The position numbers were made by a program, and so were the translations under genes. From a phage, in assembly GCA_017864995.1 (NCBI GenBank), contig GCA_017864995.1_4097.1: a stretch of 64,000 nucleotides of DNA. The stretch is one strand, 5' to 3'. Under the pieces are notes generated by a model that was not told the origin of the DNA, made no database searches, and worked only from the letters and a program-made list of their open reading frames with translations. The number at the start of each line of letters is the position of its first letter. Within the stretch, counting starts at the first letter, position 1. Shown piece after piece: positions 8,240-26,573 of the stretch.

Positions 8240-8267
8240 TTGCACCGTACTGATAAAAGCGTATAAT
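8240..8267 (+). promoter_or_regulatory. class I promoter (TTGCAC-16-TATAAT, then GTTTTACATC)
   Basis: near-consensus hexamers; same cassette recurs upstream of many genes. Confidence 0.6.
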
Positions 8268-8281
8268 GTTTTACATCGAGA

Positions 8282-8298
8282 GCGGGAACTCTTCCCGC
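8282..8298 (+). promoter_or_regulatory. 5'-UTR hairpin GCGGGAA-ctc-TTCCCGC
   Basis: perfect 7-bp inverted repeat ~15 nt after -10; no U-run; RBS follows. Confidence 0.5.
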
Positions 8299-8322
8299 TA
8301 CACTTTAAGAGAGATTAAAACG

Positions 8323-8685
8323 ATGGCAACTCAAATCACCAAAATTATTGCTAACCTGGTTAACTTCCGCGACGAGATGAAAGATCTTCCGGCGGTAACG
8401 GTTAAAACTCACATTGACGCATACCGCGAACTGATTAAAATGCTGCCGCTTAAGCGTGAACAATACGCCGCTACCGTGATGCTTGATGCGATGATCCATA
8501 AGATGATCTCCCATGATTTAACGATGGTTTATCAGTACATGGGCGAAAATTTCGCGGTGTGTAGTACGCCAGTACCAGGGATGGCAACAACTGAGGAATT
8601 GCACGGTTTAAATTTAAAACAAGATGCATGGGATAATATGCCTCGTTTCCTGGTATGGGCTGACAGTGGCAAAATTTACAAATAA
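8323..8685 (+). CDS. hypothetical protein (120 aa)
   Basis: start MATQITK after RBS TAAGAGAG (track start 8266 lies in hairpin). Confidence 0.6.
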   Translation: MATQITKIIANLVNFRDEMKDLPAVTVKTHIDAYRELIKMLPLKREQYAATVMLDAMIHKMISHDLTMVYQYMGENFAVCSTPVPGMATTEELHGLNLKQDAWDNMPRFLVWADSGKIYK

Positions 8686-8699
8686 GTTTAATAAAGTAC

Positions 8700-8727
8700 T
8701 TGCAAACTATGTTTAAAAGCGTATAAT
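8700..8727 (+). promoter_or_regulatory. class I promoter (TTGCAA-16-TATAAT)
   Basis: followed by hairpin GGGGAA-tag-TTCCCC at 8742-8756. Confidence 0.6.
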
Positions 8728-8779
8728 GTTTTACATCAGGTGGGGAATAGTTCCCCACTATAATTAAGAGATTAATTGT

Positions 8780-9013
8780 ATGAGTACTATTTTAACTGTT
8801 TCTCAATCCGTTGCACTGACTGACCTATTAAACGCTTTAAGCCGTTGCACTGAGGTTGGCTTGTTTGATGCGGTTGACGTTGCACCGGACGTTATTAATC
8901 ATTTTTGTGATGCGATGGAAGAATGTAAGGAAGATGATAGCCGTATGATGGCGGTCGCCTTTGAGGAAGTACAGCCAGGTGAGATCAAAGGTTTACCAGT
9001 ACTGAAAAAATAG
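8780..9013 (+). CDS. hypothetical protein (77 aa)
   Basis: MSTILTVSQ; RBS AAGAG; Cys/acidic-rich. Confidence 0.6.
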   Translation: MSTILTVSQSVALTDLLNALSRCTEVGLFDAVDVAPDVINHFCDAMEECKEDDSRMMAVAFEEVQPGEIKGLPVLKK

Positions 9014-9016
9014 TAC

Positions 9017-9044
9017 TTGCAAACTATGTTTAAAGGCGTATAAT
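9017..9044 (+). promoter_or_regulatory. class I promoter (TTGCAA-16-TATAAT)
   Basis: followed by hairpin GGGGAA-tag-TTCCCC at 9059-9073. Confidence 0.6.
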
Positions 9045-9095
9045 GTTTTACATCAGGTGGGGAATAGTTCCCCACTATATAAGAGGATTAAAAAA

Positions 9096-9335
9096 ATGGC
9101 TAAATCAAAAATGTTCTTAGGTCACAAAAACAAAACTCATTGGAATGTAAGCCTTTGGATTAATAACGATGAGGGATTGTATCGGTTGGCCCTGGATTTT
9201 ATTAACGATAACACTAATCGCAATGATGCGGCCCGTCATATGATGTTATTTTTAGAACAGACTGGACAAGATAAAACACCGGACGGATTCAAATATAGCA
9301 CTACTGCGATCCGTGCGGCGATGGTTGGAATGTAA
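9096..9335 (+). CDS. hypothetical protein, paralog of 11133-11372
   Basis: MAKSKMFLGHKNKTHWNVSLWINN...TPDGFKYSTTAIRAAMVGM shared with 11133 gene. Confidence 0.6.
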   Translation: MAKSKMFLGHKNKTHWNVSLWINNDEGLYRLALDFINDNTNRNDAARHMMLFLEQTGQDKTPDGFKYSTTAIRAAMVGM

Positions 9336-9349
9336 TAGAATTTATTTAA

Positions 9350-9383
9350 AGTACTATCATTTTTTGCGATAGTACTTTATAAT
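9350..9383 (+). promoter_or_regulatory. class II promoter (AGTACT...AGTACT-tt-TATAAT)
   Basis: two AGTACT hexamers 21 bp apart, second abutting TATAAT; weak -35. Confidence 0.4.
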
Positions 9384-9420
9384 AGTGTTTTATTCATACA
9401 CCAACGATAAGGGCAACAGC

Positions 9421-9687
9421 ATGAATATTAAGTATTTTGCGACGCGTGAACAAGCTCGGATCGCCGCACGCCAGGACGGGGCAACGTTTAAAGATATGGG
9501 CGTACAATCGGAACGTGGTAAACGTTGGGCCATTGTAAAGCGTAGTACCGCCAGATCATTACAGTACTGGTTAGCGGCCTTAAAAAGTCCCGATAGTGTA
9601 TCGCGTCGAGTGGTAGAAATAAAGCTCGACCGAAAGGGCAACCGCGTGACCGTGTACCGTACTAAAAAGATTGCAGTACTTGAATAA
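9421..9687 (+). CDS. hypothetical protein, paralog of 21258-21653
   Basis: MNIKYFATREQARIAARQDGATFKDMG...RKGNRVTVYRTKK shared with 21258 gene. Confidence 0.6.
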   Translation: MNIKYFATREQARIAARQDGATFKDMGVQSERGKRWAIVKRSTARSLQYWLAALKSPDSVSRRVVEIKLDRKGNRVTVYRTKKIAVLE

Positions 9688-9694
9688 AAAGTAC

Positions 9695-9722
9695 TTGCAA
9701 ACTATGTTTAAAGGCGTATAAT
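9695..9722 (+). promoter_or_regulatory. class I promoter (TTGCAA-16-TATAAT)
   Basis: followed by hairpin GCGGGAA-ctc-TTCCCGC at 9737-9753. Confidence 0.6.
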
Positions 9723-9774
9723 GTTTTACATCGAGAGCGGGAACTCTTCCCGCCTATAACCTGGAGTAATAAAA

Positions 9775-10005
9775 ATGACTAATATGTATATGACTGAAGT
9801 TAAAACCGTAAAAGATACTACCACGAATAAAACTACTTACTTACAGCGGATCTGTGGTGTATGGCAACGTATCAGCAAATCAAAGTACTTTAAATTAACA
9901 TCATATGCAAATCGTTCGGATTCATTCAGTACTGAAATAAAAGGTAATAAAGTACACCAATACGGCACTTATTATTATTATAGCCTGGACGCGATTGCAG
10001 TATAA
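9775..10005 (+). CDS. hypothetical protein (76 aa)
   Basis: MTNMYMTEVK; RBS CTGGAG. Confidence 0.55.
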   Translation: MTNMYMTEVKTVKDTTTNKTTYLQRICGVWQRISKSKYFKLTSYANRSDSFSTEIKGNKVHQYGTYYYYSLDAIAV

Positions 10006-10252
10006 GCAGTTTACAAATCTTTACAATTGCCGGTATTGACTTATTTTGTCAGTACTGGCATAATGTATTCATTGGCAGATAAGCCGTAGCCCATAGGGTG
10101 CGGGAGTGTATCTATAGCAAAATTAGTTTAGTATAGTTACAATTGTGCACCCGGTGGGTTAGCTGTTGTCATGGGGTATATTATGCCAGTACTTGATAAT
10201 GCTGTCAATACTTTTTTACTATTCAGTACTGAAAACTATTTTTAAAAAGTAC

Positions 10253-10280
10253 TTGCAAACTATGTTTAAAGGCGTATAAT
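10253..10280 (+). promoter_or_regulatory. class I promoter (TTGCAA-16-TATAAT)
   Basis: drives conserved leader element 10291-10369. Confidence 0.5.
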
Positions 10281-10290
10281 GTTTTACATC

Positions 10291-10369
10291 AGGACGGGGA
10301 ACGAAATAAGTAACTTCCCGTTAAGTAGCCCAGGAGTAAGGCACACGAAAAACTCCCCTGATAAAATAG
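10291..10369 (+). ncRNA. candidate structured leader/sRNA element (copy 1)
   Basis: AGGACGGGGAACGAAATAAGTAAC..CCCGTTAAGTAG..CAGGAGTAAG..ACGAAAAACTCCCCTG; near-identical copy at 20066-20143. Confidence 0.3.
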
Positions 10370-10370
10370 T

Positions 10371-10398
10371 TTGACAATAGAAAGTAAAAGCGTATAAT
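10371..10398 (+). promoter_or_regulatory. promoter TTGACA-16-TATAAT
   Basis: second promoter immediately upstream of 10431 gene. Confidence 0.5.
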
Positions 10399-10430
10399 AC
10401 TTACATCAACTACTGAATGAGGGTTACAAA

Positions 10431-11042
10431 ATGAAAACTATCACTACTACTACTTTTGTTATGGCTTTTTCTGAACTGAACGCAGAACAAAAAACGGCGG
10501 CTATCGAACTGGTTCGGGATCGTGAGCGTTCATGTGAGGATAATTTCTTTGCTGAGGGCGTTATCGAGTACTATAAAGAAACAGTACTACCAGAATACGG
10601 CATAGATGAAGCTGAATTGCAATACAGTGGTTTTTGGTCGCAAGGTGACGGTGCATCAATCAGTACTGACCACGTTGACGCAGTGAAGTTTTTACGCAAG
10701 GTAAGAGCATTAACTAAGTATCGCTCAATCCGTCACTTGCTGAATGAAGATGATTTGGCGATGAGTGTAGAACGTTCACACTCTCGCTACGCACACGAAA
10801 ACACGGTAAGCGGGTACATTGAATCGGCTTACACTGATTTAACCGCAAAACAAGAAACGTTAGTTAATGAGCTTGAGGAACTACTCACTGATACTATTCG
10901 TGAATTGTCCCGCAAGTTGTACCGTGATTTAGAGAATGCATATGAGGATCAATTCACTACTGAAAACATTACGGCACTGATTGAGGGTAACGAATATCAA
11001 TTCAATGTTATTGATGGCGTAGTGGAATCAATCGAATATTAA
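10431..11042 (+). CDS. hypothetical acidic protein (203 aa)
   Basis: MKTITTTTFVMAF; largest gene in this block; function unknown. Confidence 0.6.
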   Translation: MKTITTTTFVMAFSELNAEQKTAAIELVRDRERSCEDNFFAEGVIEYYKETVLPEYGIDEAELQYSGFWSQGDGASISTDHVDAVKFLRKVRALTKYRSIRHLLNEDDLAMSVERSHSRYAHENTVSGYIESAYTDLTAKQETLVNELEELLTDTIRELSRKLYRDLENAYEDQFTTENITALIEGNEYQFNVIDGVVESIEY

Positions 11043-11054
11043 TTTAAAAAGTAC

Positions 11055-11082
11055 TTGCAAACTAAGTTTAAAAGCGTATAAT
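11055..11082 (+). promoter_or_regulatory. class I promoter (TTGCAA-16-TATAAT)
   Basis: followed by hairpin GGCGGGGA..TCCCCGC. Confidence 0.6.
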
Positions 11083-11132
11083 ACTTTACATCAAGGCGGG
11101 GAGTGGTTCCCCGCTCAAACGAGGATTTAAAA

Positions 11133-11372
11133 ATGGCTAGTACTAAAACTTACAACGGACACAAAAACAAAACTCATTGGAATGTAAGCCTTTGGATTAA
11201 TAACGGTGAGTCATTGTATCGGCTTGCTCAAAGTTGCATCGCACAAAGTAGAACTAAAGATATTGCTGCGGAATGTATGTACCGCAGATTAAAAGCCAAC
11301 GGTACTACTACAACGCCGGACGGCTTTAAGTATAGCACTACTGCGATCCGTGCTGCAATGGTTGGAATGTAA
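11133..11372 (+). CDS. hypothetical protein, paralog of 9096-9335
   Basis: MASTKTYNGHKNKTHWNVSLWINN...; start at RBS-supported internal Met. Confidence 0.6.
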   Translation: MASTKTYNGHKNKTHWNVSLWINNGESLYRLAQSCIAQSRTKDIAAECMYRRLKANGTTTTPDGFKYSTTAIRAAMVGM

Positions 11373-11392
11373 TATTCAGTACTGAGATAATG

Positions 11393-11415
11393 GCGGGTAA
11401 TAGTTCCCGCCTTTA
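11393..11415 (+). terminator. intergenic hairpin GGCGGG-N7-CCCGCC (weak terminator or processing site)
   Basis: same hairpin type as the 5'-UTR hairpins but no promoter; weak T-run. Confidence 0.3.
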
Positions 11416-11429
11416 CTGAGGGTTATCTA

Positions 11430-11690
11430 ATGAGTAAAGTAATTAGCTATACAGCACTAAGCAAGACATTATCTATTAGCCAGTGCACCGATGGTTATTG
11501 GCTATTTGATGAAACGCGTGGCATGAATTTAGCCATGCGTGCAAAAACTGCTGAGGCGGCGTATCTTGAAGCATTGGAATACTACCAGGAACGTTTAAAG
11601 GAAGTAGAAGAAGATTATAAAAGCCTCAAAGCGAAAGTAGATCATTTCGTCGGTCAATTCATCGAGGAAGACGACGACAAACAATATTGA
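11430..11690 (+). CDS. hypothetical protein (86 aa)
   Basis: MSKVISYTALSK; RBS GAGGG. Confidence 0.55.
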   Translation: MSKVISYTALSKTLSISQCTDGYWLFDETRGMNLAMRAKTAEAAYLEALEYYQERLKEVEEDYKSLKAKVDHFVGQFIEEDDDKQY

Positions 11691-11776
11691 AAAAGTACTT
11701 GCAATTAGTTTTCAGTACTGTATAATGGTTTACATCAAAGGGAGAAATGGTTCTCCCTGGTAATGAGGAAAATACA

Positions 11777-11998
11777 ATGGCTAATATCACTACTCTTTCC
11801 CAACTGGAAGCACTGGTTAAATCTATGCGGGAACATGCCGACAAAATCGGCGTACAAGATCCAGCCGTTTGCTTCTGCGACGAATTGAATGATGATACCC
11901 TGGTAATAGCAGAAGTCCAGGACGTTTCTAACTATTCCTCGCGTTACACTGGCGGCGTAGCAAATAAAGGCGACTTCTGTTTATACCTTACAAAATAA
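11777..11998 (+). CDS. hypothetical protein (73 aa)
   Basis: start MANITTLSQ after class I promoter plus hairpin GGGAGAA..TTCTCCC. Confidence 0.55.
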   Translation: MANITTLSQLEALVKSMREHADKIGVQDPAVCFCDELNDDTLVIAEVQDVSNYSSRYTGGVANKGDFCLYLTK

Positions 11999-12002
11999 CA
12001 AC

Positions 12003-12035
12003 GCGGGGAGATAATAACTCCCCGTTACTTTTTCA
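12003..12035 (+). terminator. rho-independent terminator
   Basis: GGGGAG-ataataa-CTCCCC followed by TTACTTTTT. Confidence 0.5.
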
Positions 12036-12240
12036 GTACTGAATCATTTAATAGACGGATCTCGGCACCCGGTGGGTTAGTGACTGTTTCGTCTTGATGT
12101 AGTAATTATGCCAGTACTGGATGCACTTGTCAACAACTATTTTTCAAATACTTTTTATTAAAATACTTGCAATTAGTTTTTAAACGCGTATAATGTTTTG
12201 CATAGGGGGAGCGGTTCCCCTGGTAACTAAGGATAATCAA

Positions 12241-12540
12241 ATGAAAATTACAATCATCGCCCTGGCTTTATCTGTTTCCTCTTTCGCTGTTAATGCGTCA
12301 TTAGATGTAAGTAGTGAAAAATTCATTCAGTGCACTGTTGCAATGACCGATGAAAGTACTGGCGAGATTGTATTAAAGGATCTGGAGATTCAGCCGGAAG
12401 CATTTAAAAACGGCCCGTTCCATGAAGAAGACGAAAACGGTAGCACGACAATTTATTATGATGCCAGTACTAAACGCGGTTCGGTCACTGTCATGGATAC
12501 TGAGAAAGTAACTCATACCGGCGTTATTAATTGCCGTTGA
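12241..12540 (+). CDS. small secreted/periplasmic protein (signal peptide)
   Basis: start MKITIIALALSVSSFAVNA-SLD, typical signal peptide; class I promoter plus hairpin upstream. Confidence 0.55.
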   Translation: MKITIIALALSVSSFAVNASLDVSSEKFIQCTVAMTDESTGEIVLKDLEIQPEAFKNGPFHEEDENGSTTIYYDASTKRGSVTVMDTEKVTHTGVINCR

Positions 12541-12561
12541 TAGATACTACGGGGTAACATC

Positions 12562-12792
12562 ATGACTAAGCGAATTGTTTTACTTAACGAAAGCAGTACT
12601 ACACAACTACTTAACGCCGTGCATTATGATATTGAAACGAGCGTTAATCTTATCAGTACTGTAGTACTGTTGGACACTGGAAAGGTCGCCAATGATAAAG
12701 CGATTGCAGGTATATTAACGGATCTTGAGCCTGGTCGCAGTGCACCAATAACGTTAAATTGTAAAGTGTTTAATATTTTACTCACTGATTAA
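12562..12792 (+). CDS. hypothetical protein (76 aa)
   Basis: MTKRIVLLNESS; followed by strong terminator. Confidence 0.5.
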   Translation: MTKRIVLLNESSTTQLLNAVHYDIETSVNLISTVVLLDTGKVANDKAIAGILTDLEPGRSAPITLNCKVFNILLTD

Positions 12793-12798
12793 GTACAT

Positions 12799-12826
12799 AG
12801 CCCACCTGGTGGGCTTTTTTGTTTTT
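12799..12826 (+). terminator. rho-independent terminator
   Basis: AGCCCACC-t-GGTGGGCT then TTTTTTGTTTTT. Confidence 0.7.
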
Positions 12827-12874
12827 GTAGTATCGTAGTACTGAGATACTTTGAAAATAGTTTTAAGAAAGTAG

Positions 12875-12902
12875 TTGACATTACCGCAGAAAAGCGTAGA
12901 AT
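12875..12902 (+). promoter_or_regulatory. promoter TTGACA-16-TAGAAT
   Basis: followed by ~110-nt leader related to the 10291/20066 elements. Confidence 0.45.
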
Positions 12903-13031
12903 GTATTACATCAAGACGGGGAGCACTAAGTAGACCGCCAGTAAGTCGAACGAAAAACTGGACACGTCGAGAAAACTTTGATACACTAATAAACGTAAAC
13001 GTAAACTTAACTTTAATTGAGGATTTATAAA

Positions 13032-13514
13032 ATGGCTAATGTAAAATCATTCATCAAAGCACTGGTAGCAAATGAAACTAACGTCGCGGCTGAGATCCTG
13101 GCTGAACTGGATAACGATACCATGAAAGCGGTACGCAATAATTTTAACATCGCGTACAGTACTGCGAAAGAACTACAAGCAAATAAAGCGGCAGAAATTG
13201 AAGCGGCAAAGGCGGCCCGTGAAGCAGAACTAAAAGCAACAATTGAAAGTATCCAGGCGGCAGTAGTTGGATTGGATCTGGAAGTAGTTACAGAGATGGC
13301 ACAAAAAGCCCTGGCGGTTAAGTATGGGGAAGACAAGCCAGAAGTAAAAGCCAAAAAATGGATTCAGGAACGCGTAGCGGTAGTACTGGACAACGGGGAA
13401 GAATATCTGATTCCGGTGCGTGGTAACTGCATTGCGGTAGTACTGGACGCGATTAACTCCAGTGGTATGACTCGCGAGGAATGGATCGAAGCTCATCGCA
13501 AAGTTGAAGCATAA
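13032..13514 (+). CDS. hypothetical Ala/Glu/Lys-rich coiled-coil-like protein
   Basis: MANVKSFIKAL...AAEIEAAKAAREAELKATIESIQAA; RBS GAGGA. Confidence 0.6.
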   Translation: MANVKSFIKALVANETNVAAEILAELDNDTMKAVRNNFNIAYSTAKELQANKAAEIEAAKAAREAELKATIESIQAAVVGLDLEVVTEMAQKALAVKYGEDKPEVKAKKWIQERVAVVLDNGEEYLIPVRGNCIAVVLDAINSSGMTREEWIEAHRKVEA

Positions 13515-13535
13515 CAATTAAAGTACTGAATCACT

Positions 13536-13566
13536 AGCCCACCTTAAACGGTGGGCTTTTTTGTGT
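13536..13566 (+). terminator. rho-independent terminator
   Basis: AGCCCACC-ttaaac-GGTGGGCT then TTTTTTGTGTTT. Confidence 0.7.
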
Positions 13567-13716
13567 TTATCGTTTACCAGGCCACCAGCACCGCCTAGAA
13601 ACGATTCTAACGCATTAAACTGATTATCTGATGCATTGCCCTAGCTGGTGGCGGTAAGGTCGTTGTAATGCGATTGAGAGCGTTTAAAGTATTTTGCAAA
13701 AAGTAATAAAAAGTAC

Positions 13717-13744
13717 TTGCACGATTAAGAGATTAGCGTATAAT
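13717..13744 (+). promoter_or_regulatory. class I promoter (TTGCAC-16-TATAAT)
   Basis: followed by hairpin GAGAGGGGGAA..TTCTCC. Confidence 0.55.
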
Positions 13745-13799
13745 GTTTTACATCGAGAGGGGGAAACGGTTCTCCTTCCAAATCAAAGGAATCAAAACA

Positions 13800-14027
13800 A
13801 TGGCTATTATCATTACTCGCGTATCTGGTACTACTGGCAACGAACAAGTAGTTGCAGTCATTACCATCAAGGAAGGTGCGGAATTGCAAAATGCAATGAA
13901 TACCTGGGCCGTTAATGAGTTCGGTCAGTGGGCAAGTGTAGCATACATTGAAACCTATCAAGTGCCGTCGATTAGTTTAACTGATTTGGGCGTTGAGCGT
14001 ATCCTTTGCCTTGATGAATTAAATTAA
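13800..14027 (+). CDS. hypothetical protein (75 aa)
   Basis: start MAIIITRVSG (track start 13743 lies in promoter/hairpin). Confidence 0.55.
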   Translation: MAIIITRVSGTTGNEQVVAVITIKEGAELQNAMNTWAVNEFGQWASVAYIETYQVPSISLTDLGVERILCLDELN

Positions 14028-14112
14028 AAAGTACTTGCAAAGTAAATCGAATAAAGTATAATACATTACATCAAGGGGAGAAAATGGTTCTCCCCACTAC
14101 AAGGAAACTAAA

Positions 14113-14256
14113 ATGAAAACTTGTCAATGTGGTCAGAAATCTATTACTGGTTTAAAGCGGGGCGTTGCACTTTGCCAGTACCATTATAATTTACAAGTAT
14201 GGGGTAAAGAATGGGCCGACCAGGTGGAAGCAGCAAAGAAAGCAAAAAGTAAGTAA
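14113..14256 (+). CDS. tiny Cys-containing protein (47 aa, below track cutoff)
   Basis: MKTCQCGQKS...LCQYHYN; own class I promoter plus hairpin upstream. Confidence 0.45.
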   Translation: MKTCQCGQKSITGLKRGVALCQYHYNLQVWGKEWADQVEAAKKAKSK

Positions 14257-14275
14257 AAATATTATCACAGTACTA

Positions 14276-14304
14276 TTGACATAGTTTGATAGTACTGGCA
14301 TAAT
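14276..14304 (+). promoter_or_regulatory. class II promoter (AGTACTaTTGACA-N9-gatAGTACTGg-CATAAT)
   Basis: TTGACA-17-CATAAT flanked by two AGTACT; near-identical copies at 17116 and 25293. Confidence 0.5.
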
Positions 14305-14345
14305 AGATTTTATCAAGACAACATATTAATTTAAGGAATACTAAA

Positions 14346-14669
14346 ATGGCTAAAACTATCATTAACACCGTTTCCCTGGCTGCAATCCGTGCAATCAATG
14401 TTGACGGTAAACGTTGGACTGATTCATATGGCAATACTTATCATTCTTGTCATGTAAGCGTCGAACTGGATAACGGTTTGAATGATCTGGCGGTTGAATC
14501 ATTTACTTATGGCTATGAAGATGCATATCAACAAACGGCGTTAGATCTATTAAAGGAATCAGTAGACGGGCTTAATACTGATGAAACCTCCCTTACTCGT
14601 TTGTGCAATGATCTTAATATCCCGTTGCATTGTACTGTACATAATGTTAAACGCAAAAAAGATCTTTAA
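14346..14669 (+). CDS. hypothetical protein, paralog of 20839-21162
   Basis: shared RWTDSYGNTYHSC..FTYGY..VKRKKD with 20839 gene. Confidence 0.6.
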   Translation: MAKTIINTVSLAAIRAINVDGKRWTDSYGNTYHSCHVSVELDNGLNDLAVESFTYGYEDAYQQTALDLLKESVDGLNTDETSLTRLCNDLNIPLHCTVHNVKRKKDL

Positions 14670-14749
14670 TTAGCTTTACTTTATGCAGATACTTTGATAT
14701 AGTGTCTGCATAGGGGAAAGAAATTAAATTAACTTAAGAGGAACGTATA

Positions 14750-15019
14750 ATGAAAAATATCAGTACTTTAATCGATGCAGGTACTCATGTTCGTCGGTCT
14801 ATGGTTGCAACCAGTACTACAAAACAAGTACCAAGCGGTTATCTTGTATTTGTGTACGATGGTAAACTCCTGGAACGTTCAATCAATTTTGATGTTAAAA
14901 ACAATTGCCGTTTTATTATCTTTAAGCGTGAACAATATAAAATTGATTTACCAGCAAAGCCCATAAGCGGGGCGTACAACGTGCAATCATTGTTTGAACG
15001 TCAACCATACACCTATTAA
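14750..15019 (+). CDS. hypothetical protein (89 aa)
   Basis: MKNISTLIDAG; RBS AAGAGGAA. Confidence 0.55.
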   Translation: MKNISTLIDAGTHVRRSMVATSTTKQVPSGYLVFVYDGKLLERSINFDVKNNCRFIIFKREQYKIDLPAKPISGAYNVQSLFERQPYTY

Positions 15020-15070
15020 TCAAAACATCGTTAGCGGTCGATTTAGGCCGCTTATATTGGGGATTATACC

Positions 15071-15343: not shown

Positions 15344-15348
15344 TTAAT

Positions 15349-17607: not shown

Positions 17608-17613
17608 TATTAT

Positions 17614-18533: not shown

Positions 18534-18562
18534 GTTTTATATCTTAACTGAGGATAGTAATC

Positions 18563-19483: not shown

Positions 19484-19569
19484 AAAGTACTTGCACAGTA
19501 CTGAATAAAGTGTATAATGTTTTATATCGGAAGGGGAATAGTTCCCCTCCGAACAAAGAGGAAAGTATA

Positions 19570-19743: not shown

Positions 19744-19889
19744 AAGAATTCTTATTTGAAGTAGTGTTTCAAGGTGTCGGCAATAACCAACTGATTCGAT
19801 CAAGTGGTTATAATGTTAACCAGGCATGGAATAACATTAAACAAATGTACCCGAACGCTATCACATATCGCAACCCGAAAGAAGTTTAA
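19740..19889 (+). CDS. hypothetical protein (49 aa)
   Basis: MKEFLFEVVFQGVGNN; ATGA overlap with upstream stop. Confidence 0.4.
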   Translation: MKEFLFEVVFQGVGNNQLIRSSGYNVNQAWNNIKQMYPNAITYRNPKEV

Positions 19890-20204
19890 AAAATAATTGA
19901 AAAAGGGATTGACTCCGGTCAGTCCCTTTGCTATTATATACGCATAGAAACAAATCAGCCCACCGGGTGCATAAATGTATCTATTGTTTGCTGGTGGCTA
20001 GTACTGAAAACTATTTTTAAAAAGTACTTGCATTGTACTTATAATCAAGTATAATGTTTTACATCAGGACGGGGAACGAAATAAGTAACCCCGTTAAGTA
20101 GTCCAGGAGTAAGACATACGAAAAACTCCCCTGATAAAATAGTTTGACAATAGAAAGTAAACGAGTATAATACTTACATCAACCACTGATAAGGAAACAT
20201 AAAA

Positions 20205-20480
20205 ATGCGGATTCTACTGACAGCTAACGAAATCGAACAAGTACTGACTACTAACCTGGAAGACTGGAAACGTGAAGCAGATATCCAGGCGGTTCAATGG
20301 TTAAATGATAAGTTAACGCCGGATGACTTAAGCAAGATTGTAGATCCTCAATTCTACGAAGATATCCACGACACCGCGTTAAGCGTCGAGGATGTACTAG
20401 ATAAGCACTTTATTGATACTGATTTGCAGGTTTACGGTCGTAAAAACTTTATCACTATTCACGACATTTACAATAATTAA
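20205..20480 (+). CDS. hypothetical protein (91 aa)
   Basis: MRILLTANEIEQ; downstream of leader element copy 2 and a second promoter. Confidence 0.55.
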   Translation: MRILLTANEIEQVLTTNLEDWKREADIQAVQWLNDKLTPDDLSKIVDPQFYEDIHDTALSVEDVLDKHFIDTDLQVYGRKNFITIHDIYNN

Positions 20481-20567
20481 GTATTGACAAAGTATCTTAG
20501 TACTGTATAATAGTTTACATCGAGAGGGGGGAATGGTTCCCCTCCTAACTAAAAGAGAGAAATAAAA

Positions 20568-20750
20568 ATGGCTAAGTGCACTATCTGCAAGAAAGAAATA
20601 GTATTAGTTCCAAGTGCCCGTGAACGTGCCGCTCGGTTCGGTGGCAAAGCGTCAGACTATACAAAAATGTTTACTACCCATACAGCTTGCCAGGTAGCAA
20701 AACGTTCACAAGAAAGCGTAGAATTAATGCGTAAACTTTCCAAAAAATAA
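20568..20750 (+). CDS. small Cys-containing protein (possible zinc ribbon)
   Basis: MAKCTICKKE...HTAC; promoter plus hairpin upstream. Confidence 0.5.
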   Translation: MAKCTICKKEIVLVPSARERAARFGGKASDYTKMFTTHTACQVAKRSQESVELMRKLSKK

Positions 20751-20838
20751 GTATTGACAAAGTATCTTAGTACTGTATAATAGTTTACATCAAGTGAGGG
20801 GAAACGGTTCCCCTCCTAACAAAGAGAGAGAAATAAAA

Positions 20839-21162
20839 ATGGCTATGATCCTTGCCCAGAAAGTAGAATTGAAAATTGTAACCTCCTTTGACATTAACGT
20901 TAATCGGTGGACTGATTCACACGGCAATACTTACCACTCTTGCTACGTGTCTGCGTTAATTGGCGACCGCTGGGAAGACCTGGGACACGAAACCTTTACA
21001 TACGGTTACGGTACACAAGGCGAATACACGGGCTTGGAGATCATTAAAGAAACCGTTATAGGTTTCAACCCGAAAGAAAAAGTTATTCACCGCATCGAGG
21101 AAGAGATCAACAAAGAAATAACAGTTCGCTACCACGATGTAAAACGTAAGAAAGACATGTAA
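20839..21162 (+). CDS. hypothetical protein, paralog of 14346-14669
   Basis: MAMILAQKVEL..NRWTDSHGNTYHSC..FTYGYG..VKRKKDM. Confidence 0.6.
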   Translation: MAMILAQKVELKIVTSFDINVNRWTDSHGNTYHSCYVSALIGDRWEDLGHETFTYGYGTQGEYTGLEIIKETVIGFNPKEKVIHRIEEEINKEITVRYHDVKRKKDM

Positions 21163-21257
21163 TAGAATCCATTTAAAGTACTATTTGACATTGCCCAGAT
21201 AGTACTTTATAATAGACTCTAACTTGTAGTACTAACTCAACCAATAGGATGTATACC

Positions 21258-21653
21258 ATGATTACTAAATTCTACGCTACCCGTGAAGCTGCCCGTATTG
21301 TTGCACGCGAGGAAGGAGCAGCATTTAAAGACATGGGAACGACAGCACCGAAAGGTCAACGCTGGGCCGTACAGTTCAAAGAAATCTCTGATATTGTGAA
21401 TTCACCTGAGCCAGTACTAACAGCAGCAGAACTAAAACGAGCGGATATGCTGGCGGCAATACTTGACGCACAAGATGAGTTTATCGCTGATTCTGATATC
21501 AAAGTACAGGTAAACCACACCGCATGGACTCACGCGGATCACCTGGCAAACCTTAAGCGTCCAAGTGAACTGATTCGCAACCAGAAAGAGATCCGACATG
21601 ATCGTAAGGGTAATCGTGTAACAGTATACAGTAAACGCCGCCAGGTTATCTAA
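21258..21653 (+). CDS. hypothetical protein, paralog of 9421-9687
   Basis: MITKFYATREAARIVAREEGAAFKDMG...RKGNRVTVYSKRR. Confidence 0.6.
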   Translation: MITKFYATREAARIVAREEGAAFKDMGTTAPKGQRWAVQFKEISDIVNSPEPVLTAAELKRADMLAAILDAQDEFIADSDIKVQVNHTAWTHADHLANLKRPSELIRNQKEIRHDRKGNRVTVYSKRRQVI

Positions 21654-21675
21654 TAACTTGCAGTACTAACAACAC

Positions 21676-21700
21676 GGCGGGATCAGTTCCCGCCTTTTTT
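21676..21700 (+). terminator. rho-independent terminator
   Basis: GGCGGG-atcagtt-CCCGCC then TTTTTT. Confidence 0.65.
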
Positions 21701-21714
21701 ATAGGACAAACAAA

Positions 21715-21969
21715 ATGATTAAGGTTCAACTATATAAAGATAACATCTTACGGGTACACTATAAAGCACCGAAGAGAATCATCACAAAGGCCGTACAGCT
21801 TGCTAATGAGTTTATTAATGGTAACCTATTACCTAGGAAGTTAAGCAACGGGAAACTGCGTGTAATCGACGTGGACACTAACAACAGGATAGTAATCGAG
21901 AACACAGGAAAGATAAACCTTTATGAGCATCAACAATACAATAAGAAAATAAAACTAATATCACGTTGA
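21715..21969 (+). CDS. hypothetical basic protein (84 aa)
   Basis: MIKVQLYKDN; RBS AGGA. Confidence 0.5.
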   Translation: MIKVQLYKDNILRVHYKAPKRIITKAVQLANEFINGNLLPRKLSNGKLRVIDVDTNNRIVIENTGKINLYEHQQYNKKIKLISR

Positions 21970-22022
21970 CAGTACTCAATTGTTTTAGTACTATGTACAC
22001 ATACCAACACGGGAGAAACAAA

Positions 22023-22241
22023 ATGAAATTATCTAAAATCGAAAAGAAAACTATTGATGAAGCAGTTAAGCACGGTTATACCTTTCGTAATGATTCACAT
22101 TTTACCAATTTTCAACAAGGGTATCGTACTATTAAAAAACTAATTGACAAAGGTTTATTAGTTGAAGTCAATAACGGTAACGGTATCGAGTATCAACCAA
22201 CACAGGACGCATTTTATTTTAAGAAATATAATATTATCTAA
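22023..22241 (+). CDS. hypothetical protein (72 aa)
   Basis: start MKLSKIEKK; shares a duplicated ~60-nt promoter/leader with 22299 gene. Confidence 0.5.
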   Translation: MKLSKIEKKTIDEAVKHGYTFRNDSHFTNFQQGYRTIKKLIDKGLLVEVNNGNGIEYQPTQDAFYFKKYNII

Positions 22242-22298
22242 TTGACAGTACTCAAATGTTTTAGTACTATATGTACATACCAACACGGGGGAAACAAA

Positions 22299-22541
22299 AT
22301 GATTACTTTAGAAAAACGTATCAAAGAAACTACATCGCTGGTGGAACTGTTAACAGTACTCAAATGTAAAACAACACCATTCAGCACGCCGGACTTTATT
22401 AATATGGTTGATGTTAATGGTCGCTATCGTATCACGGTCGAACAAGGAGCGGCGAAAGTATTCAGTACTAAAAACACGAAGGAAGTGATCCACGCCGTTA
22501 ATGTTAAAAAAGTAGTTGCCATTGATAGTAAAGTACTGTAA
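22299..22541 (+). CDS. hypothetical protein (80 aa)
   Basis: start MITLEKRIKE; promoter/leader 22243-22301 near-identical to 21966-22025. Confidence 0.5.
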   Translation: MITLEKRIKETTSLVELLTVLKCKTTPFSTPDFINMVDVNGRYRITVEQGAAKVFSTKNTKEVIHAVNVKKVVAIDSKVL

Positions 22542-22572
22542 TATAGTTTCATTAACTCAAGGAGAACATGCA

Positions 22573-23157
22573 ATGCGTAATTATACAAAATTCATCCGTA
22601 CACTGTCAGAAATGGAAACCAACAAAGAGATCCTTTCAGCTTGTCGGTTAGCTGACCTGGAGATCATCGGTGCTGGTTCTTCCCGTATAGTTTTCGCTTT
22701 AAATGATCGGTTAGTGATTAAGGTCGCGAATTGTGATGCGGGTGTCGAACAAAATGAAACTGAATGTAAGGTATGGAATTTTTTAGACTATGACCGCCCT
22801 CAGTTGAAACAGTACTTTGCAAAGGTGCATATGCATTTATGCGATCCTGATAATATGTTTATCGTTATGGATCGGTTGAGTACTGCAAGCAAAGGCAGTG
22901 TGAAGCACGTAAACGCGTGCAATGAATTAAAGTACAATATTAAACGTAATGCAATCGAACGCCAGCACCGCTTTGCTGATGCACTACAACACGTTGATGA
23001 TACATTATCAACACTAACGATAAGAGATATCAGAAAACAGAATATCGGCCAGGATCGTAATGGACTTATTAAAGTACTTGATTACGGTTTAACCAGCAAT
23101 ATCTGGAATCAGTACTATAAAAAGCGTGATGTGGCAGCAAGTAAAGTAACACGATAA
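22573..23157 (+). CDS. putative protein-kinase-like protein
   Basis: IGAGSSRIVF (Gly-rich loop), VIKVA (Lys), IRDIRKQNIG (HRD-like loop), LDYG (DFG-like); RBS AAGGAGAA. Confidence 0.4.
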   Translation: MRNYTKFIRTLSEMETNKEILSACRLADLEIIGAGSSRIVFALNDRLVIKVANCDAGVEQNETECKVWNFLDYDRPQLKQYFAKVHMHLCDPDNMFIVMDRLSTASKGSVKHVNACNELKYNIKRNAIERQHRFADALQHVDDTLSTLTIRDIRKQNIGQDRNGLIKVLDYGLTSNIWNQYYKKRDVAASKVTR

Positions 23158-23378
23158 AAAAGATTAAAAAAGGGATTGACTTCGGTCAGTCCCTTTGCTA
23201 TTATATATTCATTGAGAGATAACTCACTGACCCATAGGGTGCGGAAGTGTATCTATTATATAAGTATTCAGTACTGAAAACTATTTTTAAAAAAGTACTT
23301 GCATTGTACTTAGAATCAAGTATAATGTTTTATATCGAGAGGGGGAAATGGTTCTCCCTGGCAATAAGGAATAAAATC

Positions 23379-23600
23379 ATGACTACAATGACTTGCATTT
23401 ACGCTTCCAATCGTCTGAATGATGCGGCCTTTAATGTTGATTCAGAATATCAATGTTATCGGGATGAAAATAAAAAAGTTTTTGTAGTTGATAATAATGG
23501 TTTCCATATTGAATTGCAATCCGGCTTCACTGGCGTTGATGGTAAATCAGTATGGGGCGTACAGGATGATAAAGGTACATATCATTTTAAACGTAATTAA
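23379..23600 (+). CDS. hypothetical protein (73 aa)
   Basis: start MTTMTCIYASN after promoter plus hairpin. Confidence 0.5.
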   Translation: MTTMTCIYASNRLNDAAFNVDSEYQCYRDENKKVFVVDNNGFHIELQSGFTGVDGKSVWGVQDDKGTYHFKRN

Positions 23601-23683
23601 GTATTGACAAAGTATCTTAGTACTGTATAATAGTTTACATCAAGGGGAGAATAGTTCTCCCCAATACAATAAGGAATAAAATC

Positions 23684-24091
23684 ATGTCTACTACTACTAA
23701 TCTCGCTCGGAACATCACTAACGATAAAAATCATGCTGCAATGGTCGCTGGTTACATTGAAGCTATGCAATTCAGTACTGTACATAATGATAACGGCGAT
23801 TACCTGGAAGATTATGAGTTATCTGATGAAGCACGTCAAGCGGCGGTGATTGCATGTTCTCGCTTCATTGAGAAACACGGTAATGATCTGGAAGTAGTTC
23901 GCGGTATGTTTATTGATTACGGTTATGAGCAAGCTGGTCATGATCTGTTCCTTACCCGCGAAGGTCACGGAACTGGTTTTTGGGATCGTGGTTTAGGTCA
24001 CTATGGCGATGTATTCACGAAGTACTGCGAAGAAATCAACGTTTGCGATCCCTATGTAGGCGATGATAACTTAATCTATATGGGCGAATAA
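23684..24091 (+). CDS. hypothetical acidic protein (135 aa)
   Basis: MSTTTNLARN; promoter plus hairpin GGGGAGAA..TTCTCCCC upstream. Confidence 0.6.
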   Translation: MSTTTNLARNITNDKNHAAMVAGYIEAMQFSTVHNDNGDYLEDYELSDEARQAAVIACSRFIEKHGNDLEVVRGMFIDYGYEQAGHDLFLTREGHGTGFWDRGLGHYGDVFTKYCEEINVCDPYVGDDNLIYMGE

Positions 24092-24178
24092 AAGTATTTG
24101 ACAAAGTATATCAGTACTGTATAATAGTTTACATCAAGGGGAGAACTATTCTCCCCACCAATAAAAGGAAACAAAATT

Positions 24179-24451
24179 ATGTCCAGCTACTCCGCTACTA
24201 TGATCATTAAAGATATGAACGGTAATCCTACTTCTGCTGGTGGATCATTTGGAAATATTAACTTAGATGGGCGGTTATCCATGCAATCAGCCATCGATGC
24301 AGCGAAAGAAGTTTTTAAGAATGAATGTACTGTTAGTAAGCTGGATTATATGGGATTCGCTATCGAGAAAACTACTCGTTTTGTGAACTACAAAAATCCA
24401 CTGATGATTGATACTAACCTGAAAGCTAACGAAGTGGGGTACTTATTATGA
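24179..24451 (+). CDS. hypothetical protein (90 aa)
   Basis: MSSYSATMIIKD; promoter plus hairpin upstream. Confidence 0.55.
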   Translation: MSSYSATMIIKDMNGNPTSAGGSFGNINLDGRLSMQSAIDAAKEVFKNECTVSKLDYMGFAIEKTTRFVNYKNPLMIDTNLKANEVGYLL

Positions 24452-24639
24452 CAGTAGAAGAAGTTAAAAAAGTACTGGCAGTACTACGATATCATAATCA
24501 TTGCAAGGTGAAGAATGATCCTGATTATCTTGATTCATCCCTGGAGGAAGACACCTTGAACGCTATAAGCCATATGCAGACATTAGCAAAGCGTATGACT
24601 GAAAAGAACATGCCGGACTATATCGGAAATAAAATTTAA
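24448..24639 (+). CDS. hypothetical protein (63 aa)
   Basis: MTVEEVKKVLAV; ATGA overlap with upstream stop. Confidence 0.5.
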   Translation: MTVEEVKKVLAVLRYHNHCKVKNDPDYLDSSLEEDTLNAISHMQTLAKRMTEKNMPDYIGNKI

Positions 24640-24726
24640 AAAGTACTTGCATTGTAGTTAGATTAACGTATAATGTTTTATATCGAGAGGGGGAAATGGT
24701 TTCCCCTCAAGTCCAGGAGATACACC

Positions 24727-24990
24727 ATGAACACTATCGAAATCACTATCAATGCACACGTATACGACAACGTAGTACTGCAAACTACTATGACCGCCAA
24801 TGATACCAGTACTTTGCGGAATACTGTTATTAGTGCCGTATGTGCCGCTATCGGTGATGTCGCCCTGGAAAATGCAAAACACGTAAACGATGGTTTCACT
24901 ATGTGCAAACGTGATAACGCAAAACATATCATCGTGGAAGGTTACGGCGGTGTAGAATTTAATGTTTATATGAAAAAAGTACTTGCATAA
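24727..24990 (+). CDS. hypothetical protein (87 aa)
   Basis: start MNTIEITINAH after RBS CAGGAGA; track start 24673 lies in promoter. Confidence 0.55.
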   Translation: MNTIEITINAHVYDNVVLQTTMTANDTSTLRNTVISAVCAAIGDVALENAKHVNDGFTMCKRDNAKHIIVEGYGGVEFNVYMKKVLA

Positions 24991-25057
24991 TAACTAAAAC
25001 AAAGTATAATGTTTTGCATAGGGGGAGATATCCTCCCCCACTAAAAGGAGTAATAAA

Positions 25058-25282
25058 ATGGCTAACTTTGATGAACTGATGCGGGAAGTAGCTAACCTGG
25101 CAGAAGAGAAGAAATCATTCGATTCTATCTATAACACCGCTCACCGTGATTCAGTACTGGCATGTAACCAGGAACAAAAAGATGAACTAATCGCCACCTA
25201 TCATGAAGCATGGAAGTACTACCGACAATGGGAGAAAGAAGAAAGTGAGTCTACCATTGACGGCCTCAATAATCTAATCTAA
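25058..25282 (+). CDS. hypothetical protein (74 aa)
   Basis: MANFDELMREVA; promoter plus hairpin GGGGGAGATATCCTCCCCC upstream. Confidence 0.55.
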   Translation: MANFDELMREVANLAEEKKSFDSIYNTAHRDSVLACNQEQKDELIATYHEAWKYYRQWEKEESESTIDGLNNLI

Positions 25283-25358
25283 AAGTTTTATTTCAGTACT
25301 ATTGACATAGCTTGATAGTACTGATGTAATAACTTTACTAACTACAAGGGGAAACATA

Positions 25359-25616
25359 ATGGATCAGTTCACACAATATCGGGTAAATCCTCAAGCTATG
25401 GCCTACGTAGAAGACCATAAAACGTTACCAGTACTGCAACCAGTTAAAGGCCATATCTATCGTGCAATGTCGTGGTGTACGGCCCAGGATGGCTATAAAA
25501 CCGTAGCCGTTGGTATGTATTGCGGTAATGGTGAATGGTTTGATCCAAATAATCCGGTAGCCATTGACAGTACTGAAAAAATGAAATGGGCCGACTACAT
25601 CGAAGATATTTCATAA
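25359..25616 (+). CDS. hypothetical protein (85 aa)
   Basis: MDQFTQYRVNPQ; class II promoter upstream. Confidence 0.55.
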   Translation: MDQFTQYRVNPQAMAYVEDHKTLPVLQPVKGHIYRAMSWCTAQDGYKTVAVGMYCGNGEWFDPNNPVAIDSTEKMKWADYIEDIS

Positions 25617-25706
25617 AAACTATTTGACAGTACTAACCAGTAATGTATAATGTTTTACATAGAGCGGGGGAATAGTTCTCCCGCCAATAGTTTGGAGTAA
25701 AACATT

Positions 25707-25907
25707 ATGTCTATCGCTATCGCCCTGGTTGAAGTACTGAAAGAAGCTAAAGCCAACCAGATCGACGTAAAGATCCAGGAACTACAAAACGGCTTAATCG
25801 GCTGTACTTGTACCGCTGGTGGAGCGGCAGACTATCGAGAACACGAATCACTCGAATCACTGGTTCGGTATCTTACCATGATCGTTGATGATTGGAGAAT
25901 CATCTAA
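25707..25907 (+). CDS. hypothetical protein (66 aa)
   Basis: MSIAIALVEVLK; promoter plus hairpin GCGGGGGAA..TTCTCCCGC upstream. Confidence 0.55.
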   Translation: MSIAIALVEVLKEAKANQIDVKIQELQNGLIGCTCTAGGAADYREHESLESLVRYLTMIVDDWRII

Positions 25908-26152
25908 CAAAAAAGAATAAAAAAAGGGATTGACTCCGGTCAGTCCCTTTGCTATTATATACGCATAGACAAAAACTAGCCCACAGGGTGCATAGGTGTA
26001 TCCAAAATATATAGTTAATAACGGTGAGTAACTATCTGCTGGTGGAGTGAAAACTATTAATAAAAAAGTATTGACAAAGTATATCAGTACTGCGATAATG
26101 TATCTCGTAGGGCGGCAATGGTGCGACGGCCCACAAAGTTAGGAGATTCACC

Positions 26153-26488
26153 ATGAGTACTTCAATCGCTATCGTTAAAGCTTTCATCCGTACCAATGAT
26201 TCATCTGTATACTGCGACGGCCTTGATCGTAAAGTATCATTCTCATTCATTGTCGCACAAACGGCTGACGGTTCTCGGTATATCCTTAACGATAGCGAAG
26301 TAAATCATTACTACTTCACTAAAGCTACTGGCTTTAAACGCATCGATGCTGATGTAGTATACGCTAAGATGAATAAGCTGGTAGATAAGATTAACGCTAA
26401 AGGGACTATCGATTTACTGTACTGGACCGAAACCGATCCAGAATACGGCTCTCACCGTTACCTGAATCCAGGTATTAAAATGAAATAG
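26153..26488 (+). CDS. hypothetical protein (111 aa)
   Basis: MSTSIAIVKAF; RBS AGGAGA. Confidence 0.55.
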   Translation: MSTSIAIVKAFIRTNDSSVYCDGLDRKVSFSFIVAQTADGSRYILNDSEVNHYYFTKATGFKRIDADVVYAKMNKLVDKINAKGTIDLLYWTETDPEYGSHRYLNPGIKMK

Positions 26489-26573
26489 TACTTGCATAGT
26501 ACTTAGATTCATGTATAATGTTTTACATAGAGAGGGGGAAATGGTTCTCCCTCCTAAATTAAGGAGTTTTATC

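Follow-up and report, generated by a model that had tools for sequence, protein, structure and literature searches.

A recurring promoter and stem-loop cassette, selected at the RNA level, in the terminal repeat region of an Asteriusvirus jumbo coliphage

In a 64,000-nt stretch of phage DNA (contig GCA_017864995.1_4097.1; the whole stretch is called the window here), the same cassette of promoter, GC-rich stem-loop, ribosome-binding site (RBS) and start codon stands in front of 25 small genes. The DNA is that of a jumbo coliphage, a giant phage of E. coli, from the genus Asteriusvirus (PBECO4/121Q type), and the cassettes lie in the part that corresponds to the direct terminal repeat (DTR) of its relatives. 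We read them as modular early-expression cassettes that resemble the promoter-early stem-loop (PeSL) cassettes of T4-like phages and carry the stem-loop in their 5' untranslated region (5'-UTR), and we put the probability of this reading as a whole at about 0.5. Its descriptive part is very likely to be right. Its functional part, in which the stem-loop is probably a barrier to nucleases and an insulator of the RBS, is offered tentatively, at somewhat less than even odds.

Over about 95 bp, each cassette runs from an A-tract resembling an UP element through AGTAC and the -35 hexamer to a TATAAT spaced 16 nt from it, and on through a start block into the stem-loop, past which follow a short A/U-rich linker, a purine-rich Shine-Dalgarno (SD) sequence and the ATG of a small gene, mostly one without assigned function. 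A motif scan with GTACTTGCAA-N16-TATAAT, allowing at most 3 mismatches, gave 22 matches, all on the plus strand between 8236 and 26519, where shuffled sequences gave 2.3 expected matches and a maximum of 7; a broader scan returned about 49 sigma-70-like sites on the plus strand between 7 and 28 kb. Promoter scanning together with folding identified 25 promoters that lead through a conserved start block, (G/A)TTTACAT(C), into a hairpin (Table 1) with a stem of 6-9 bp, a loop of 3-6 nt and a folding energy of -10.6 to -16.4 kcal/mol. The stem begins 11-15 nt past the -10 hexamer, and the ATG lies 16-23 nt beyond the end of the stem. GC hairpins with a purine 5' arm number 29 on the plus strand, all of them between 6.7 and 26.6 kb, and there are none in the other ~43 kb of the window.

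The cassette architecture therefore recurs far beyond chance, and the original prediction, made from the sequence of the window, that one layout of promoter, hairpin, RBS and small gene precedes at least 20 genes is borne out by these 25 cassettes and by the excess of motif matches. The array is less uniform than that prediction implied. The hairpin is also found behind promoters with a perfect TTGACA -35 hexamer, and is therefore not bound to the TTGCAA variant; two promoters (10253 and 20028) lead into a long-loop variant, and some mRNA promoters, discussed below, have no hairpin at all. The stems, described as perfect inverted repeats, are indeed inverted repeats but contain G·U pairs and are not always perfect.

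To follow the stem across copies, a covariance model was seeded on ten copies of equal geometry, and its matches at E <=0.001 were aligned from the window and seven related loci, giving 63 matches of which 49 are distinct. This alignment replaced a MAFFT alignment of whole leaders, in which the stems were out of register, and a version at E <=1 was redone at the stricter threshold after minus-strand matches had been mixed in. Among the 49 distinct copies, 91% of the cells pair, and at 6 of the 9 pairs both partners have changed (54 cells). Covariation scores 0.378, compared to 0.203 ± 0.014 for shuffles (none of 500 reaches 0.378) and at most 0.185 when the partner is slid by 1-3 columns, figures which are indicative since the alignment follows the model and the copies are relatives of one another. 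Covariation statistics had been proposed as a check on the idea that arms which differ yet stay complementary reflect selection on RNA structure; they exceed both the shuffle and the slide controls and bear that idea out.

The kind of pair that is tolerated points the same way. Pair 13-29 is AU in 19 copies, GC in 19 and GU in 11, with no other combination and never A·C, and a census of 44 unique hairpins found 13 internal G·T pairs and 3 A·C. Foreign 3' arms fold as well as the own partner in 11.5% of cases. As G·U is kept and A·C is avoided, selection acts at the level of the transcript; a palindrome selected as double-stranded DNA would treat both alike. In orthologous cassettes of the window and of 121Q or vB_Ec-M-J, the arms diverge by 1.6-2.4% and the loop by 11%, and the same comparison gave 1.6% for the -10 hexamer, 6.3% for the promoter spacer and 6.4% for coding sequence. 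Stems thus diverge ~4-6 times less than the loop and ~3-4 times less than the neighbouring spacer of the same cassettes. Purifying selection acts on the stem as a single plus strand, that is, as RNA.

The cassettes are also the breakpoints at which single genes are gained and lost between related phages. Compared to two relatives, seven single-gene indels (two against vB_Ec-M-J, five against 121Q) have both breakpoints inside cassettes. The window is without EcMJ_010 and EcMJ_016 of vB_Ec-M-J, the flanking alignments overlapping at cassettes, and each of the five genes that it has in addition to those of 121Q lies between two cassette copies, with alignments that overlap by 43-103 nt. Gene-sized indels at PeSLs are known in RB49/phi1, T4/PST and KVP40/nt-1 (PMC2839356, PMC4122927). 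The same cassettes, together with at least one shared gene (the HKNKTHWNVSLWIN family), are found in the rV5-like Vequintavirinae A73 and A7_1, which also carry a promoter variant of their own with a GC hairpin at the equivalent place. Paralogous small genes (MA..HKNKTHWNVSLWINN..LYRLA) at 9096-9335 and 11133-11372 of the window are present in A7_1 as well (locus L007, 4224-4463), so that unrelated lineages of coliphages have early genes in common. In Munch, a jumbo phage further removed, hairpin-type and unstructured leaders stand side by side, and the 26 kb examined of a Yersinia Eneladusvirus holds only one, unrelated hairpin.

Such behaviour raises the question of whether the hairpin is needed as RNA at all. 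It could be a functionless passenger, or a part that promotes recombination of a mobile cassette as DNA only; the seven indel breakpoints and the presence of cassettes in unrelated lineages would fit this, and PeSLs have been proposed as recombination sites (PMC2839356, PMC4122927). What makes such an explanation very unlikely is that G·T is tolerated and A·C avoided on the plus strand, which a double-stranded palindrome would not distinguish, that the stems diverge several times less than spacer and loop, and that the position of the hairpin is fixed relative to the RBS.

In the reading that we prefer, the host sigma-70 RNA polymerase would fire all cassettes at once after DNA entry, and the hairpin would form in transcripts from its own promoter as well as in read-through or processed transcripts from upstream cassettes. 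There it would be a sequence-independent structural barrier immediately upstream of the ribosome footprint, and hairpin and bound ribosome together would leave little naked leader RNA for RNase E. By locking away the pyrimidine tract and the RNA upstream, it would also leave the RBS open regardless of the gene that is joined to it or of the context. The outcome would be uniformly high, context-independent early expression. The repeated cassette doubles as homology for recombination, by which genes are added, deleted and swapped as described for PeSLs.

Several observations weigh against this reading. Nine promoters of the same array have no hairpin, and the hairpin is therefore not required for expression. 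The arms have a strict polarity, purines in the 5' arm (GGGG(A/G)(G)AA) and pyrimidines in the 3' arm (TT(C)(T/C)CCCC) with only 14 of 348 pairs flipped, which a pure structural barrier does not explain; the copies may have this polarity by shared ancestry, or because their sequence is specifically recognised. Gene conversion among the cassettes could contribute to the low divergence of the stems. The predicted start of the transcript is a further difficulty. An A stands at position 8 past the -10 hexamer, and a pyrimidine at position 7, in 24 of 25 copies each, the single exception to both being p18923, a frame-shifted copy with a shifted -10. E. coli RNA polymerase favours starting on a purine 7-8 nt past the -10 hexamer, which makes this A the likely start; a leader of 1-7 unpaired nucleotides (median 5) then precedes the stem. 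At least 2 unpaired 5' nucleotides are needed by RppH and RNase E, which prefer at least 3 (PMC8833179). A leader of about 5 nt would suffice for RppH and for the 5' sensor of RNase E, so that classical 5'-end protection is doubtful, and the original description of the hairpin as 5'-terminal is not demonstrable. In the literature on Asteriusvirus, Rak2-like and rV5 phages we found no mapped transcription start for the group.

Folding of the leaders bears on both sides. In the complete leader the SD window comes out 87% unpaired, with minimum free energy folds agreeing on an open RBS, and 53% unpaired once the 5' arm is removed. Shuffled 3' arms give the same drop (to 0.54), which indicates an effect of composition and no specific design; the 3' arm as a specific anti-SD sequence was rejected on this ground. 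The same control bears on the proposal that the hairpin is a switch or identity tag of early mRNAs, with a 5' arm that mimics an SD sequence (GGGGAGAA) and a 3' arm that resembles the anti-SD (UUCUCCCC). Here a phage factor, for example a GGAG-specific nuclease like RegB, would cut or unwind the 5' arm, the freed pyrimidine arm would pair with the true SD 8-12 nt downstream, and ~25 early genes would be silenced. In silico removal of the 5' arm does lower SD accessibility, from 0.87 to 0.53, but as shuffled arms do likewise the effect is not specific, and we hold this proposal to be highly improbable. An AUG within the loop (ATGG or ATGA) was considered as the start of an N-terminal extension and rejected after hand translation of the nine copies that have one: only three of the nine continue in frame and open into the gene, which is what chance predicts, and the spacing to the SD-like arm is too short.

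The polarity of the arms would be accounted for by an RNA operator, where a phage or host protein (a nuclease or a translational regulator) would bind the G-rich/C-rich stem and switch all the hairpin-type early mRNAs off or on together after the first minutes of infection. T4 controls its early mRNAs in this way with RegB and RegA. Stem sequence and polarity are more constrained than pairing needs, few pairs being flipped; GGAG lies within the 5' arm; and the coexistence of hairpin and unstructured leaders, in the array and in Munch, would fit two regulatory classes. However, common descent with drift by transitions only also accounts for the polarity, and no RNA-binding protein is found among the 50 DTR products, for which Pfam gives only ParE-like, DksA/TraR, GNAT and DUF matches. 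The loops are free in length and sequence and are the fastest-evolving part, which argues against loop-specific recognition. We consider an operator unlikely. The original prediction had suggested binding by a phage or host factor, and a loop-specific factor of this kind is unlikely too, as loop length and sequence vary freely.

None of the 25 cassette stems is followed by a U-run, the next 8 nt holding 0-3 T, and a terminator scan flagged within the hairpin family only the copies at 12003 and 21676, both of which have T-runs. The cassette hairpins are not intrinsic terminators, as had been predicted from the missing U-run. A PeSL-type attenuator, which would partly halt RNA polymerase arriving from upstream cassettes and so prevent expression from piling up, is a related possibility with a precedent: the stem-loop of the RB49/phi1 PeSL reduced read-through as strongly as rrnB T1 (PMC2839356). 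Most cassettes lack any other terminator in the stretch from the upstream stop codon to the next promoter, and the two T-run hairpins of the same family resemble real terminators. Yet the cassette hairpin lies past its own predicted start and would stop its own transcripts too, few T stand behind the stems, and separate composite terminator/promoter elements with the classic PeSL geometry are present in the region, all of which makes attenuation improbable. A lambda-type nut site is also unlikely, since boxA-like matches (32 against 29 expected) never lie beside a cassette and the 3-6 nt loops are variable in sequence, with no conserved GNRA-like pentaloop. Rfam at gathering thresholds gave no relevant match in the window, and at E <=1 the 8-27 kb interval gave only a sub-threshold match to the S15 leader, unrelated to the cassettes. 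Scanning IMG/VR with TATAATGTTTTACAT was uninformative, returning besides 121Q only single, apparently chance matches in unrelated contigs.

The hairpin might instead assist transcription itself, a nascent hairpin at about +30 preventing backtracking or helping the release of sigma where clearance is rate-limiting, as it may be at near-consensus promoters. The cassette promoters are indeed near consensus and have UP-like A-tracts, the hairpin stands at a fixed distance from the -10 hexamer, and the start region ahead of it is purine-rich and conserved. However, nine equally consensus promoters do without a hairpin, promoter escape is finished before such a hairpin can form, and the hairpin at 11393 stands before an RBS with no strong promoter, which ties the hairpin to the mRNA and the RBS and not to the promoter. 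We give this explanation a low probability.

The assignment of the window and of the interval that holds the cassettes is based on comparison with sequenced relatives. Positions 8200-12400 are 94-97% identical to the Escherichia phages PBECO4, JNE01, BF17 and UE-S1 and to other Asteriusvirus, which are jumbo myoviruses of 350-385 kb. The homologous stretch lies within the annotated DTR of vB_Ec-M-J (positions 1-21525; 21,525 bp) and of Klebsiella phage fENko-Kae01 (19,736 bp), and by blastn position 1 of vB_Ec-M-J corresponds to window position 6583 and the end of its repeat to about 27400. As this stretch is annotated as DTR in the relatives and maps to the window from 6583 on, the interval is the terminal repeat of the phage. 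For fEgEco12, which has a 100% identical copy of one cassette, a terminal repeat of 20,993 bp was experimentally confirmed with PhageTerm and restriction digests (PMC13070987). The original prediction was thus right about the cassettes of this interval, but had missed its identity as a DTR, the PeSL-like recombination behaviour and the occurrence in rV5-like phages.

GC content is 0.37-0.41 in the DTR region compared to 0.29-0.35 in the remaining window, and all genes of the region are on the plus strand. The 50 small open reading frames (ORFs) at 8323-27240 matched only 13 Pfam families with 1-2 proteins each, among them a ParE-like toxin domain, a DksA/TraR zinc finger, a GNAT acetyltransferase and DUF7249 (twice), and the PHROG families listed for DTR proteins have no functional description attached. 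A scan for tRNA and tmRNA genes found none. From 27490, just past the terminal repeat, small ORFs are tightly packed and overlapping, without individual promoters or cassettes, and vB_Ec-M-J has the same layout past its position 21624.

The closest known kind, in our rating, is the PeSL of T4-like phages (Arbiol et al. 2010, PMC2839356; Comeau et al. 2014, PMC4122927), and the form with the hairpin in the 5'-UTR was not found in the literature searched. Five PeSL features are found here: a repeated intergenic module of AT-rich tract, strong sigma-70 promoter, G/C stem-loop, SD sequence and small-ORFan start, with its copies gathered in a hyperplastic early region (all at 6.7-26.6 kb) and broken by gene-sized indels of close relatives. 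One defining feature, a stem-loop ahead of the start with terminator function, is absent. Whereas the stem-loop of PeSLs lies upstream of the promoter, inside it or overlapping with it, and is a terminator, the one described here is fixed past the predicted start, has no T-run and shows covariation as RNA. The setting differs as well, being an Asteriusvirus jumbo phage with an array that fills a direct terminal repeat instead of a T4-like phage. Four separate elements in the same repeat (16241, 19902, 23169 and 25923) do match the classic PeSL geometry.

Near the 5' end of bacterial mRNAs, the stabilising stem-loops of ompA and papA (Emory 1992, Bouvet and Belasco 1992 and Arnold 1998, as these are listed in PMC3997798) offer a second comparison. 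They share a stable near-5' hairpin with an open ribosome-binding site next to it, and their effect is independent of the loop sequence. They differ in lying at most ~1-2 nt from the 5' end, where they block RppH and RNase E (PMC8833179), while the predicted leader is longer here. The cassettes also resemble the expression standards of synthetic biology, in which a fixed promoter, a structured leader and an RBS precede interchangeable genes. Libraries of synthetic 5' hairpins and RBS insulators are engineered parts for context-independent output, whereas the cassettes are a natural and evolving family of repeats.

As a region, the pre-early region of T5 is a comparable terminal repeat, transcribed early by the host RNA polymerase. 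PA5oct, a related jumbo phage, has a DTR that is likewise a long terminal repeat of small uncharacterised genes with sigma-70 promoters that is read at the start of infection; it was the most transcribed region at 5 min, and host RNA polymerase was needed (PMC7318152). No description of a repeated module of promoter and 5'-UTR hairpin was found in the literature for regions of the PA5oct DTR or T5 type. The genome papers of CBB, rV5 and fEgEco12 (the last PMC13070987) give only predicted sigma-70 promoters or nothing on regulation, and that of PA5oct adds RNA-seq and alignments of promoters and terminators (PMC7318152). A literature search on Asteriusvirus, Rak2-like and rV5 phages, which included motif strings, likewise found generic sigma-70 predictions only, with no mention of a hairpin module.

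The repeat also contains variants and other elements (Table 1). The long variant has a hairpin with a long loop (GACGGGGAAC...TTCCCGTT) and a second stem in the leader of its first copy (10241-10433), and this unit is present in the rV5-like loci. The leader itself (10280-10370 and 20055-20143) is also found in A73 and A7_1 (L006 near 2615, L007 near 2237), and could act as a small RNA or as a leader with a regulatory role. A hairpin at 11393-11411 had been described as standing without a promoter; the hairpin is real, but has one mismatch and lies 1 nt past a weak promoter-like site (TTGGAA-18-GATAAT), and we read it as a degraded half-cassette.

Besides the promoters of mRNAs, six further sigma-70-like promoters drive short non-coding units. 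A 12-nt motif, CCCAYNGGGTGC, has 9 sites against 0.01 expected, on both strands and in the terminal repeat only, and 8-9 copies are present per terminal-repeat locus in vB_Ec-M-J, 121Q, Munch and fENko-Kae01; it has no match in Rfam. Its six plus-strand copies each follow, at ~25-40 nt, a sigma-70-like promoter that has no ORF after it, and judged from this layout they look like short non-coding units. Each copy of the composite terminator/promoter element stands upstream of one of these units. Two of the three minus-strand copies (10147 and 12065) have promoter-like sites ~20 nt upstream. A convergent promoter pair (10036 on the plus and 10208 on the minus strand; 10036-10208) and a lone minus-strand promoter at 12133 (~12060-12133) face copies of the motif, 10208 and 12133 being the only strong minus-strand promoters in the repeat. 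The hexamer AGTACT occurs 281 times in the whole window compared to ~21 expected (13-fold), and CAGTACTG occurs 64 times. AGTACT stands just 5' of the -35 and of the -10 hexamer in many promoters and is common in coding sequence too; its distribution is patchy, and the intervals 28-32 kb and 36-40 kb hold no copy. The window also lacks several further palindromic hexamers, for example CCATGG (0 against 6 expected).

Table 1. Cassettes and other features of the terminal repeat region (window coordinates).
Feature	Position	Strand	-10 end	Hairpin	ATG	Remarks
Cassette	8228-8325	+	8267	8281-8299 (AGCGGGAA ctc TTCCCGCT)	8323	-35 at 8240
Cassette	8688-8782	+	8727	8739-8759 (GGTGGGGAA tag TTCCCCACT)	8780	
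Cassette	9005-9098	+	9044	9056-9076	9096	
Cassette	9683-9777	+	9722	9737-9753 (GCGGGAA ctc TTCCCGC)	9775	
Cassette	11043-11135	+	11082	11095-11115	11133	
Cassette	11687-11779	+	11726	11739-11758 (AGGGAGAA atgg TTCTCCCT)	11777	
Cassette	12155-12243	+	12194	12203-12222	12241	indel breakpoint vs vB_Ec-M-J
Cassette	13705-13802	+	13744	13757-13778	13800	two G·U pairs
Cassette	14023-14115	+	14062	14075-14095	14113	near-identical copy in rV5-like A73, A7_1
Cassette	15537-15630	+	15576	15589-15608 (GGGGAGAA atga TTCTCCCC)	15628	
Cassette	15766-15858	+	15805	15818-15837	15856	
Cassette	16369-16462	+	16408	16422-16440	16460	
Cassette	16804-16900	+	16843	16856-16875	16898	TTGACA -35
Cassette	18911-18999	+	18951	18962-18980	18997	TATAGT -10
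Cassette	19182-19273	+	19221	19234-19253	19271	
Cassette	19479-19572	+	19518	19533-19547	19570	hairpin extendable to ~19527-19553
Cassette	20472-20570	+	20511	20526-20544	20568	TTGACA -35
Cassette	20742-20841	+	20781	20796-20815	20839	TTGACA -35
Cassette	23287-23381	+	23326	23340-23359	23379	
Cassette	23592-23686	+	23631	23644-23662	23684	TTGACA -35
Cassette	24086-24181	+	24125	24138-24156	24179	TTGACA -35
Cassette	24635-24729	+	24674	24687-24708	24727	
Cassette	24971-25060	+	25010	25021-25039 (GGGGGAG atatc CTCCCCC)	25058	
Cassette	25612-25709	+	25651	25664-25684	25707	TTGACA -35
Cassette	26480-26576	+	26519	26532-26553	26574	
Long variant	10241-10433	+	10280		10431	~95-nt non-coding leader; second consensus promoter 10371-10398
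Long variant, second copy	20016-20207	+	20055, 20171		20205	position of both promoter ends given under -10 end
Nine sigma-70-like mRNA promoters without hairpin	10371-22270 (span)	+				short unstructured leader; -35 starts 10371, 14276, 17130, 17392, 18506, 20144, 21185, 21966, 22242
Hairpin of the same type	11393-11412	+		GGCGGGtAA tag TTcCCGCC	11430	one internal mismatch; 18 nt before ATG
Hairpin of the same family, then T-run	12003-12035	+				intrinsic-terminator-like
Hairpin of the same family, then TTTTTT	21676-21704	+		GGCGGGA tcagt TCCCGCC		intrinsic-terminator-like
Composite terminator/promoter	16241-16276	+		12-bp stem (AAAGGGATTGACTCCGGTCAGTCCCTTT)		stem around -35 hexamer, then TTTGCTATTAT
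Further composite copies	19902-19937, 23169-23204, 25923-25958					
CCCAYNGGGTGC sites	7676-25991 (span)	both				7676 (-), 10090 (+), 10147 (-), 12065 (-), 16303 (+), 17973 (+), 19959 (+), 23231 (+), 25980 (+)
Indel junctions vs vB_Ec-M-J	12159-12243, 14246-14322					overlaps of 85 nt and 77 nt
Five extra single genes vs 121Q	8780-9013, 15628-15774, 20568-20750, 23684-24091, 24673-24990					
DTR equivalent, small early-gene array	6583-27400	+				~21 kb; blastn vs vB_Ec-M-J

The cassettes extend the PeSL idea, of mobile cassettes that express and shuffle accessory genes, from T4-like phages to the terminal repeat of Asteriusvirus jumbo phages and to rV5-like phages, in a version whose stem-loop is now an RNA element of the 5'-UTR under selection. 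With ~25 natural leader variants before different genes and nine hairpin-less controls, the array is a ready-made experiment on near-5' hairpins in early phage mRNAs of E. coli, and it may be a source of compact, strong and context-independent expression parts. For these therapy-candidate phages, the cassettes would also mark which of the uncharacterised genes are immediate-early.

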